NCBI GenBank assembly: GCA_002347615.1
Contig: DDYH01000006.1
Span: 8,573 to 72,572, forward strand
Length of the DNA stretch: 64,000 nucleotides
Reading direction: 5' to 3'
Source of the DNA: Gallionellaceae bacterium UBA2239
GTDB lineage: Bacteria > Pseudomonadota > Gammaproteobacteria > Burkholderiales > UBA9220
The first letter of the stretch is position 1. Every line of letters begins with the position of its first letter. A model generated the notes under the pieces. That model made no database searches. It saw only the letters and a program-made list of their open reading frames with translations, and was not told the origin of the DNA. A program made the position numbers and the translations under genes. This document shows positions 26,047 through 28,950 of the stretch, in pieces.

Positions 26047-28950
26047 TTAAACGACTATGTTGACCAGCTTGCCGGGCACCACGATGACCTTCTTGGCCGG
26101 CTTGCCTTCCATGAATTTCTGCACGTTGGGGTTGGCCAGGGCGGCTGCCTCGATGGCGTCCTTGGCGGCGTCCTTGGACACCGTGATGCTGCCCCGCAGC
26201 TTGCCGTTGACCTGGATCATCAGCTCGATTTCGTCCTGCACCAGGGCGGATGCGTCCACCTCGGGCCAGGCGGCGCTGCCAAGGCAGGAGCCGGGCTTGA
26301 GCTCGCTCCACAGGGCGTGGCAGATGTGGGGCACGATGGGGGCCAGCAGGCGCACCACGGCCTCCAGGGCTTCCTGCGTCACCGCCCGGGTCGTGGCATC
26401 AGTGCCGTTGACCTTGCCCAGGGCGTTCATCAGTTCCATCACCGCGGCGATGGCGGTGTTGAACTGCTGGCGGCGGCCGTAGTCGTCGCTTACCTTCTGG
26501 ATGGTCGAGTGCAGTTGGAAGCGTAGGGCTTTGAGTTCGGGAGTGAGGTTTCCCCTCTCCCCTAGCCCCTCCCCCGCCTGCGGGGGAGGGGAACTATTGC
26601 GCCCTCCCACGAGGCCCGAATGGGGCACGGGGGAGGGTTGGGGAGAGGGCAAGCCCTGCTCCACGTGGTCATGGACCGCCTTCCACAGGCGCTTCAAGAA
26701 GCGGAAGGCCCCTTCCACCCCGGCGTCGGACCACTCCAGCTGCTGGTCGGGGGGGGCGGCGAACATCATGAACAGGCGGGCGGTGTCGGCGCCGTACTGG
26801 TCGATGATGGCCTGGGGGTCGACGCCGTTGTTCTTGGACTTGGACATTTTCTCCGTGCCGCCGATGATCACCGGCTGGCCGTCAGTCTTGAGAGTGGCGC
26901 CGGTGGGACGGCCCTTGTCGTCCAGGGCCAGGTCCACGTCGGCGGGGTTGATCCACTGCTTCTTGCCGTCGGGCAGGTCGCGGTAGAAGGTGGGGGCCAC
27001 CACCATGCCCTGGGTGAGCAGGCGGGTGAAGGGCTCGGTGAATCTGGATGTCTTTGACCTTCGCGCCCTCTCCCCCTGGGAGAGGGTTGGGGTGAGGGCT
27101 TCCCCCTCGCCGAATAAACCCACGTCCCGCATCAGCTTGTGGAAGAAGCGGGCGTAGAGCAGGTGCAGGATGGCGTGCTCGATGCCGCCGATGTACTGGT
27201 CCACCGGCAGCCAGTACTTGGCGCGCTCGTCCAGCATGGACTTGTCGTTGTCCGGGCCGGTGTAGCGCGCGTAGTACCAGGAGGATTCGACGAAGGTGTC
27301 CATGGTGTCGGTTTCCCGCTCCGCCGGGCCAGAGCACTTGGGGCAGGTGGTTTGGTAAAACTCGGGCATCTTCTTGATCGGCGAGCCGACGTCGATTTTC
27401 ACGTCCTCGGGCAGCACCACCGGCAGCTGGTCCGCCGGCACCGGCACGTCGCCGCAGCTGGGGCAGTGGATGATGGGAATCGGGCAGCCCCAGTAACGCT
27501 GGCGGGAGATGCCCCAGTCCCGCAGGCGGTACTGCACCTGCTTGTCGCCCAGGTTCTTGGCCCTGAGGTCGGCGGCGATGGCGTCCACGGCCTGGGCATG
27601 GTTCAGGCCGTCGTACTTGCCGGAATGAATGCACACGCCCTTTCCCTTGTCGGCGTACCACTCCTGCCAGCTATCGACAGAAAAGGTCTCGCCTGCCACC
27701 TGGATCACCTGCTTGATGGGCAGGCCGTACTTCTTGGCAAAGCCGAAATCCCGCTCGTCGTGGGCCGGCACCGCCATCACCGCGCCTTCGCCGTAGCCCA
27801 TCAGCACGTAGTTGCCCACCCACACCGGCACCTGCTCGCCGGTGAGGGGGTGGGTGACGTTGATGCCCGTGGCCATGCCCTTCTTCTCCATGGTGGCGAG
27901 GTCGGCCTCGGCCACGCCGCCCTGCTTGCATTCCTCGATGAAGGCGGCCAGTTCCGGGTTGTTCCGGGCGGCGTAGGTGGCCAGGGGGTGCTCGGCGGCC
28001 ACGGCGCAGAAGGTCACGCCCATGATGGTGTCGGCCCGGGTGGTGTAGACCCAGAGGAGGCCTTTGCCGCCAGTTTCCCCCACCCCTCGCCCCTCCCCCG
28101 CCTGCGGGAGAGGGGAACCCTTACTCCCTCCCCCGCAGGCGGGGGAGGGTTGGGGAGAGGGAGAAGCGGCGCTTGCACCCTCTCCTAACTCTCCCCCGCT
28201 TGCGGGAGAGAGGGACGAAGGCCCGCCTTCGGCGGGTAACTCGTATTCAAACGCGAAGCGCACGCCCAGGCTCTTGCCGATCCAGTTCTTCTGCATGGTG
28301 CGCACCTGCTCGGGCCAGCCGGGCAGGTTGTCCAGCTCGTTGAGCAGCTCGTCGGCGTAGGCGGTGATGCGCATGAAGTACATGGGAATCTCGCGCTTTT
28401 CCACCAGGGCGCCGGAGCGCCAGCCGCGGCCGTCGATCACCTGCTCGTTGGCGAGCACGGTGTGGTCCACCGGGTCCCAGTTCACGGTGGCGAGCTTCTT
28501 GTAGATCAGGCCCTTTTCGAACAGCTGGGTGAACAGCCACTGCTCCCAGCGGTAGTAGTCCGGCTTGCAGGTGGCCAGCTCCCGGTCCCAGTCCACGCCC
28601 AGGCCCAGGCTCTTCAGCTGCTTGCGCATGTAGTCGATGTTGGAGTAGGTCCACGCCGCCGGCGCCACGTTGTTCTGCATGGCCGCGTTCTCGGCGGGCA
28701 GGCCGAAGGCGTCCCAGCCCATGGGCTGCATCACGTTGAAGCCTTTCAGGCGGTGGTAGCGGGCCAGCACATCCCCAATCGTGTAGTTGCGCACGTGGCC
28801 CATGTGCAGCTTGCCGGAGGGGTAGGGGAACATGGACAGGCAGTAGTACTTGGGCTTGTCGCTGTCCTCGGTGGCTTTGAAGGCCTGGTTTTTCTCCCAG
28901 TGTTGCTGGGCGGCGGGTTCGATCTCGGCGGGGGTGTAGTGGGCTTGCAT
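26047..28950 (-). CDS. leuS: Leucyl-tRNA synthetase carrying three in-frame repeat-derived insertions
   Basis: [28 protein letters not shown] ([11 protein letters not shown]) and KMSKS ([11 protein letters not shown]) motifs. About 967 aa, compared with about 860 aa for typical bacterial LeuRS. Confidence 0.95.
26548..26652. repeat. Family A palindromic repeat translated in frame within leuS (insertion 3)
   Basis: Encodes [35 protein letters not shown]. Contains CCCCTCCCCCGCCTGCGGGGGAGGGG and GGGGGAGGGTTGGGGAGAGGG. Confidence 0.85.
27037..27111. repeat. Family A palindromic repeat translated in frame within leuS (insertion 2)
   Basis: Encodes [25 protein letters not shown]. Contains CCCTCTCCCCCTGGGAGAGGGTTGGGGTGAGGG. 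Confidence 0.85.
28066..28233. repeat. Cluster of family A palindromic repeats translated in frame within leuS (insertion 1)
   Basis: Encodes ..[54 protein letters not shown]... Three hairpin units, e.g. CCCTCCCCC-GCAGGC-GGGGGAGGG. Confidence 0.85.

Follow-up and report, generated by a model that had tools for sequence, protein, structure and literature searches.

The 64,000-nucleotide (nt) stretch of contig DDYH01000006.1 of Gallionellaceae bacterium UBA2239 analysed here (hereafter the window) carries leuS, the gene for leucyl-tRNA synthetase (LeuRS), on its minus strand. Our analysis makes it very likely that this is a working gene in which three permissive surface loops of the enzyme hold translated copies of a mobile palindromic element, which is devoid of open reading frames (ORFs) and similar to repetitive extragenic palindromes (REPs) and their paired form (REPINs). 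At the DNA level the three leuS segments are units of the repeat family that also occupies intergenic sites of the window, and they are lacking in the nearest relatives. The host is an uncultured betaproteobacterium whose nearest named relatives are Sulfuricella and the Sulfuricellaceae.

leuS gene and position of the inserts

The ORF encodes a LeuRS of 967 amino acids (aa) counted from ATG (an upstream TTG start would make it 976 aa). HMMER matches it at E=0 to the LeuRS of N. gonorrhoeae (6q89, 877 aa) and of E. coli, the structures matched at this value being 6q89 and 3zgz; the match is split in three, with query residues 236-297, 614-637 and 767-796 outside it. Pfam recognises tRNA-synt_1, tRNA-synt_1_2, the LeuRS editing domain and Anticodon_1, and the class Ia motifs are present as HMGH at residue 49 and KMSKS at residue 701. 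The protein thus has the HIGH/KMSKS motifs, the domains and the fold of a bacterial LeuRS. Downstream of leuS are lptE and holA, in the same order as in relatives. Comparison with an 865-aa relative gives a ratio of nonsynonymous to synonymous substitution rates (dN/dS) of 0.22 at a dS of 0.22, which indicates that leuS is under purifying selection and that its differences from this relative are recent. A preliminary description of the window had allowed for a pseudogene; judged by its sequence, the copy is intact and very likely a working gene.

The same description had put LeuRS at about 100 aa above the typical length. The closest relatives, P0003 and P0004 (865 aa), are without all three segments, and the window LeuRS exceeds them by 102 aa. 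Alignment of leuS with the P0004 gene (locus L081) by blastn, at 92% nt identity, is broken at exactly three places (Table 1), and the net gains of 54, 22 and 26 aa explain the entire excess. The segments had been placed at 28066-28233, 27037-27111 and 26548-26652; the loci are right, and the blastn bounds differ from these coordinates by ~10-35 nt. Describing them as three insertions holds in that three segments are absent in relatives, but none is a clean insertion, as each displaces 3-17 ancestral codons. The closest orthologues, without the segments, keep short ancestral loops at these places, which speaks against the segments being ancestral LeuRS sequence.

All three inserts keep the frame and contain no stop codon, as had been reported, and in inserts 1 and 3 (hereafter ins1 and ins3, insert 2 being ins2) the frame used is the sole stop-free sense frame. 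The encoded peptides consist of 23% Gly, 16% Ser and 15% Pro, and no Pfam domain was found inside these low-complexity inserts of 22-54 aa. Intein, splicing and bypassing explanations were rejected on the size and composition of the inserts and on the frame being kept in all orthologues seen.

Table 1. Coordinates of leuS, its inserts, the intergenic repeat copies and other loci of the window.
Feature	Position	Strand	Remarks
leuS CDS	26047..28950	-	ORF, HMMER, Pfam, motifs, dN/dS, structure match
Insert 1	28057..28269	-	213 nt replacing 51 (blastn); net +54 aa; aa 228-298 region
Insert 1, leader hairpin	28216-28236		leuS-specific
Insert 1, inverted singlet	28173-28214		
Insert 1, full doublet (ins1b)	28075-28165		
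Insert 2	27041..27115	-	75 nt replacing 9 (blastn); net +22 aa; aa 612-637
Insert 2, singlet	27064-27098		joined to ~30-nt leuS-specific tail
Insert 3	26541..26649	-	109 nt replacing 31 (blastn); net +26 aa; aa 768-804
Doublet	1163..1243	.	intergenic; 20 nt past a stop codon
Singlet	17786..17826	+	intergenic; subtype CCTTCCCCC...GGGGGAAGG
Doublet	33420..33523	.	intergenic; 5 nt past stop codon; closest intergenic relative of ins3 and ins1b
Singlet	45372..45412	+	intergenic; same subtype as 17786
Degenerate copy	52745..52827	.	intergenic; weak profile match 52801-52827, E=0.009
Cas9	10105-13173		1022 aa; HNH_4, RuvC_III, Cas9_a domains
Cas1	13179-14108		
Cas2	14118-14444		
CRISPR array	14515-16711		31 perfect 36-nt repeats ATTCTACTCTATCGGGATATGAGCTCTGGCCGGAAC; interrupted at 15145-15352; degenerate repeat at 17054
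AAA_21/AbiEii-type ATPase	37003-38235		in low-GC island
AbiEi_2 antitoxin-like regulator	40628-41662		in low-GC island

Repeat family in the window

The unit of the family is a 12-nt tail followed by a hairpin, CCCTCTCCCCAA-CCCTCCCCCGC-loop-GCGGGGGAGGG. A singlet of ~40 nt reads G(C/T)TTC-CCCTC(T/A)CCCCAA-CCCTC(C/T)CCC(GC)-loop-(GC)GGG(G/A)GAGGG, with a GC stem of 9-11 bp, and two inverted singlets separated by a spacer of 10-25 nt make up the frequent doublets of 85-110 nt. Both CCCTCTCCCCAACCCTCCCCC and the palindrome CCCTCCCCCGCNNGCGGGGGAGGG occur six times in the window against 0.01 expected, and half-motif clusters number seven against 0.06 in shuffles. With a profile of the units, 11 full singlets and two partial matches are detected in 64 kb; six units lie in leuS and no copy in any other gene of the window. 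The five intergenic sites named previously (1164, 17788, 33417, 45371 and 52741) are all recovered by the profile, the last as a degenerate copy. Three of the intergenic copies (1163, 33420 and 52745) begin 5-20 nt after stop codons.

Over their whole length, both ins3 and ins1b can be aligned with the intergenic doublet at 33417 (75-79% identity), and all three have the termini G[C/T]TTCCCC...GGGGAAAC in common. Together with the blastn breaks and the profile, this alignment upholds the earlier view that the excess length of LeuRS consists of three repeat-derived segments. Their make-up differs from one to the next. Insert 1 combines a leader, an inverted singlet and the doublet ins1b; the leader, CCCGCCGAAGGCGGG, forms a small perfect hairpin and is kept as P-A-x-G-G in many insert-bearing LeuRS. 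Insert 2 is a singlet with its leuS-specific tail, and insert 3 is a full doublet whose first hairpin is broken by ~21 extra nt.

The doublets at 1163-1243 and 33420-33523 fold, like ins3 and ins1b, at -74 to -99 kcal/mol. As RNA, ins1 folds at -99 kcal/mol (z -5.5), ins2 at -31 and ins3 at -77 (z -4.9). The intergenic copies fold as strongly as the leuS inserts, which indicates that hairpin strength belongs to the element and not to the place. Rfam gives no family at gathering score for the repeat, the matches below threshold being generic long hairpins (miRNA). The G-rich strand of tail and half-hairpin, GGGAGAGGGTTGGGGTGAGGG, contains four G-tracts, and a G-quadruplex competing with the hairpin is possible on paper.

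Loops that receive the inserts

For comparison we used a set of 104 LeuRS with 72-93% identity. An AlphaFold2 model built on their alignment has a mean predicted local distance difference test score (pLDDT) of 76.9 and matches solved LeuRS structures with template modelling (TM) scores of 0.74-0.86 in Foldseek. The pLDDT drops below 50 only at residues 240-295, 616-634 and 771-799 and in three short native loops. Insert 1 lies between strands 226-237 and 296-303, in the hairpin turn entering the CP1 editing domain, insert 2 between helix 590-609 and strand 641-647, and insert 3 between helices 742-764 and 804-826 of the anticodon-binding domain. The model thus predicts disorder for the insert loops and a normal LeuRS fold for the rest of the protein. 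The suggestion that they fall in variable loops agrees with this placement between secondary-structure elements and with the length variability of the same loops in orthologues.

In relatives these three loops also take unrelated insertions, and site 2 has forms with an 8-12-aa 'scar', which indicates that the loops are generally permissive. Filtering for tolerated insertions and exaptation had both been offered as explanations; the unrelated insertions favour a tolerance filter, and we see no sign of exaptation.

A fourth variable loop is situated in the editing domain (LeuRS aa 416-438, window ~27640-27705), where P0002, P0005, P0006, P0019 and P0024 carry unrelated insertions of 20-50 aa. 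These are mostly non-palindromic, some are helical-looking, and a few resemble other repeat families (…SPITHHPSLAEAF…, …SEERGARSE…).

History of the insert-bearing alleles

Site 1 is expanded in ~35 of the 104 LeuRS and site 2 in 32. Full repeat-type inserts at site 3 are present in four, including that of the window, and three others have shorter expansions. Filled and empty states of the three loops are scattered patchily over the set. Repeat-type inserts occur in six of 77 species representatives, all six being betaproteobacterial metagenome-assembled genomes (Sulfuricella, Sulfuritalea and Nitrosomonadales, one being labelled only 'Gammaproteobacteria bacterium'). Parsimony on a neighbour-joining core tree of the set places no fewer than 25, 23 and 6 changes of state at sites 1, 2 and 3, respectively. 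The element is read in three frames across the set, PLPNPLPxAGEG being one resulting peptide.

In the window's own clade (seven proteins, distance <=0.064) only the window LeuRS and P0002 carry inserts. At site 2 these two closest insert-bearing genes differ in hairpin subtype and in frame, and the site-2 tail, which is leuS-specific, is common to both frame types. Within the window the ins1 leader is found only in leuS, and for this reason it was rejected as part of the mobile unit; yet it is common to many insert-bearing orthologues, and ~60 nt are identical with P0002. The window leuS matches insert-free relatives exactly to codon 227 and then takes the insert-allele state from 30 nt before ins1. 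The 3' flank of ins1 (KGLLW) agrees with the more distant P0008, and the doublet half of ins1 is missing in both P0002 and P0008. Large recombination tracts were rejected, because the flanks remain insert-free-like to ~30 nt from ins1 and right up to ins2. For ins3, identity to the window's own copies is 0.76-0.79 against 0.69-0.71 to its positional homologues, and the 5' junctions of ins3 and of these homologues are five codons apart.

A leader shared across lineages and a co-travelling 30-nt flank indicate that allele exchange and remodelling contributed beside fresh insertion. Our reading of these sequences is that old insert-bearing alleles may have been swapped via the very conserved motifs flanking the loops and later remodelled locally. 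The comparison supports a view of sites 1 and 2 as partly inherited or exchanged alleles, and not of three fresh events. Within 5-13 kb, several relatives have repeat copies in leuS and nowhere else, and 22 kb of two insert-free relatives contain none, which fits the trapping of copies by an essential gene.

Repeat core outside leuS and its association with DUF559 genes

An exact scan of metagenome contigs for the 21-nt core of the repeat, CCCTCWCCCCAACCCTCYCCC, returned at least 120 loci with a G+C content of 0.32-0.74. The hairpin partner is present in 80 of the 120 core matches listed, and their loops and flanks are unrelated. None of the 120 loci listed encodes LeuRS, and leuS as a general host of the core motif was rejected on this ground. 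Ten of the matches listed fall inside long ORFs, seven of which have recognised Pfam domains. The core copy is flanked or enclosed by domains of PriA, an ABC-F ATPase, an Eco57I-type methylase, a DAO/GCV_T dehydrogenase and a DEAD/DUF3516 helicase, and it is in frame in PriA, in the ABC-F ATPase and twice in a HemN-like radical-SAM protein. Both copies of the HemN-like protein lie upstream of the recognised domains, as does the single copy in a PmbA/TldD protein.

Among 101 ORFs adjoining the core matches listed, the most recurrent family is DUF559 (Vsr-like). At loci L100, L107, L126 and L139 inverted units bracket a DUF559 gene, in the order hairpin-tail ahead of the start codon and tail-hairpin at the stop codon, and at L100 and L126 whole doublets stand on both sides. 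Three further loci in different genomic contexts have the same layout, with near-perfect terminal inverted repeats of 39-51 nt. These cassettes are ~0.45 kb in size, and the profile built from the window units detects them at E values of 1e-6 to 1e-9. In ins1 the order hairpin-tail, 14 nt, tail-hairpin reproduces the ends of such a cassette without the gene. A search with the DUF559 core domain gave 120 homologues of one subfamily, 82 of which end in the repeat-encoded PPHPTPLPxGERE, and the only related solved structure is that of an 'endonuclease-like protein', 3HRL. Across loci L087-L206 the 21-nt core is better conserved than the DUF559 proteins that it flanks (about half of the residues are identical between L100 and L107, by eye).

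Two further observations concern these proteins. Several of ~130 aa (P0128, P0168, P0173, P0175, P0191, P0224, P0233 and P0238) bear the JGI label 'lysyl-tRNA synthetase class 2', which was probably passed on from the annotation of a reference lysS that is fused to, or has been invaded by, a DUF559 cassette. If this is true, another tRNA-synthetase gene would have been touched by the repeat/DUF559 system. P0154, P0171, P0177 and P0179 have 20-25 extra codons in the 3' terminal hairpin loop (…PLP[SELGFTRVRHFISDRSRINPTSV]GEREHT), which suggests that other small elements nest in the hairpin loop of some cassettes.

No link between DUF559 and palindromic repeats appears in the literature searched, where DUF559 papers were represented by title and abstract. 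The core motif is absent from the REP and REP-associated tyrosine transposase (RAYT) papers in this literature, and literal searches of it for the motif or its peptides gave no match. A paper on a quadruplex repeat of Xanthomonas and Nostoc was rejected as a match, since it describes a different heptamer repeat. Searches with the insert peptides gave no candidate when word-indexed and one weak match in an exhaustive HMMER run; they are uninformative because the peptides are of low complexity, and no host-protein survey was obtained by that route.

Origin and persistence of the leuS inserts

On the explanation that we favour, copies of the element entering a coding region would survive only where the frame is kept, no stop codon arises and the receiving loop tolerates extra length. 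Inside an essential gene such copies would persist as fossils, being hard to lose because only in-frame deletions are viable. As very conserved motifs border the loops, homologous recombination between related lineages could exchange insert-bearing and insert-free alleles, and resident copies would be reshaped through further insertions or through gene conversion with copies elsewhere in the genome. More weakly, the family may be driven by, or co-evolve with, the DUF559 (Vsr-like PD-(D/E)XK) endonuclease that the same units bracket elsewhere. As a tentative proposal, the repeat might be the terminus of widespread, undescribed miniature mobile cassettes that have DUF559 as their sole gene and form a nuclease-based counterpart of the REPIN-RAYT system, the ORF-less derivatives spreading by nuclease-triggered gene conversion. 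This reading, if true, would account for the lack of target duplications, for the flank transferred along with ins1 and for the way in which the same LeuRS loops have been filled again and again across Nitrosomonadales lineages.

Several points weigh against the favoured explanation. No transposition event was seen, and neither ins1b nor ins3 nor the 33417 copy has a target-site duplication at its junctions; target codons are replaced instead. Neither the window nor the leuS loci of relatives contain a DUF559 gene, and no RAYT or Y1 transposase was found in the ~20 of ~56 window ORFs scanned against Pfam. The set of 104 LeuRS is enriched for insert carriers, since the ranking used an insert-bearing query, and we infer translation of the inserts from conservation of the frame. 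Lastly, three of the eight repeat loci are in leuS, which makes up 4.5% of the window. This excess and the leuS-only copies of relatives imply that random insertion and a filter are insufficient, and that either a preference for certain targets or the survival of copies within an essential gene has to be assumed as well.

Another explanation, which we regard as unlikely, is site-directed spread: a trans-acting nuclease, with DUF559 as the candidate, would cut insert-free leuS, and repair would copy the element from an insert-bearing allele or another copy in a homing-like manner, making the loops hot spots. The replaced codons, the lack of target-site duplications and the 30-nt flank co-transferred with ins1 are as expected from such repair. 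The same three loops have been refilled with different hairpin subtypes and frames, leuS is the sole repeat-bearing stretch at several relatives' loci, and in unrelated contexts the repeat supplies the inverted ends of DUF559 cassettes. However, the three empty sites have no obvious common motif and the same loops accept unrelated insertions as well. The lack of LeuRS among the 120 core-bearing matches listed and of DUF559 genes near leuS also argues against it, and the nuclease activity is putative.

Exaptation appears quite improbable. It would have the inserts kept for a function, either as flexible protein loops (e.g. for partner binding) or as stable hairpins in the mRNA, by which ribosomes would be paused close to domain borders or the transcript would be stabilised. 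The extreme mRNA folds of ins1 and ins3 suit this idea, as do palindromes that remain near-perfect in positional homologues despite sequence change and the location of all three sites at or near domain borders. Presence and absence vary, however, between genes 4-5% apart in protein sequence, frame, length and subtype vary by lineage, the peptide is of low complexity and low pLDDT, and intergenic copies fold equally strongly.

That the segments are ancestral, lineage-specific LeuRS loops resembling the repeats by composition, or the result of an assembly artefact or a pseudogene, is largely refuted and extremely improbable: G/P/S-rich low-complexity loops have other routes of origin and metagenome assemblies can mis-join at repeats, but the DNA alignment to intergenic doublets is full-length including shared ends, the short ancestral loop sequences are common to nearest relatives and outgroups, an identical protein is present on two contigs, independent assemblies have homologous inserts, and the ORF is intact with catalytic motifs and a dN/dS of 0.2.

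Comparison with known systems

The preliminary description had drawn a parallel with the Rickettsia palindromic elements (RPEs), which fits as a description of the mechanism. As summarised in PMC10969869, RPEs (Ogata et al. 2000) are palindromic repeats that lie in frame in genes which are unrelated and often essential; they are translated, and the fold of the host protein accommodates them. Going by that summary, the leuS repeats resemble them in being in frame and in disordered loops at surface positions, with translation inferred, and some RPE host genes have also been struck more than once. By the same summary, they differ in that the host is a free-living GC-rich betaproteobacterium of the Sulfuricellaceae/Nitrosomonadales neighbourhood, that the unit, compared by description, is a 40-nt singlet or an 85-110-nt doublet instead of ~150 bp, and that the peptide is disordered and G/S/P-rich instead of conserved.

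Like REPs in general, which are dispersed, imperfect palindromes of 20-40 bp, the repeats of the 64-kb window are dispersed palindromes, with singlets of ~40 nt, and as with REPINs their inverted dimers form long hairpins mainly 3' of ORFs. GTAG/CGTC REPs (Di Nocera et al. 2013, PMC3733652) likewise consist of 20-40 bp units of tail and hairpin, with frequent inverted dimers, mostly just 3' of ORFs; occasional in-frame intragenic copies are known, with GlyRS-beta and IleRS among their hosts, and a dimer codes for 20-30 aa. In contrast, the 11 aligned singlets of the window have no conserved GTAG/CGTC and their tail is CCCTC(T/A)CCCCAA. LeuRS is not among the hosts in that study, and three sites per gene recurring across a clade are not described there.

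The inverted doublets with long folds and the single small nuclease/transposase-type gene flanked by units are reminiscent of the REPIN-RAYT system (Bertels and Rainey 2011, PMC3116915). Unlike in that system, the flanked gene encodes a DUF559/Vsr-like PD-(D/E)XK endonuclease with a putative mobilising role and not an HUH tyrosine transposase, and whereas REPIN families are usually lineage-specific, the 21-nt core is on at least 120 metagenome contigs of widely differing G+C. Transposable elements of the miniature inverted-repeat type (MITEs) found within bacterial genes, such as ERIC and Coxiella QMITE1, are small and non-autonomous, with terminal inverted repeats and possible in-frame fusions, according to the accounts of them in PMC10969869 and PMC5896051. 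Set against those accounts, our element shares terminal inverted repeats, G[C/T]TTCCCCTCTCCCC ... GGGGAGAGGGGAAAC, a length of 85-110 nt and the lack of an ORF, but it has no target-site duplication, a parent insertion sequence encoding a classical transposase was not found, and the only gene-bearing relative found is the DUF559 cassette, which differs from classical insertion sequences.

In-frame palindromic insertions, including in tRNA synthetases, are already known, and LeuRS is a new host. The recurrence of three sites across a clade is unusual, and the DUF559 association could be the part that is new.

Other loci of the window

A type II CRISPR-Cas locus occupies 10105-17089, with a G+C content below that of its surroundings (Table 1). 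A low-GC island (0.58-0.59) at ~36000-42600 has several ORFs without a Pfam match and looks like a defence/toxin-antitoxin islet. In L081 and L084, the loci of the two closest relatives, a ~7-kb two-partner-secretion cluster of FecR, TPS-domain exoprotein and ShlB genes (2800-9990) is directly upstream of leuS, where the window has ~100 nt (28960-29065).

Biological significance

Our analysis presents an essential translation enzyme, outside the obligate intracellular bacteria, that tolerates ~100 repeat-derived residues, predicted to be disordered, in three loops. Repeat insertion, in-frame deletion and allele exchange make this essential gene a mosaic, and close relatives with and without each insert are natural controls. 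LeuRS is a drug target, and the three positions of the bacterial enzyme that accept long insertions are useful for engineering and for reading length variation. The DUF559 link, if true, would provide a function and a DNA partner for a very large family of 'unknown function', and would add a second enzyme class to REP-like biology.

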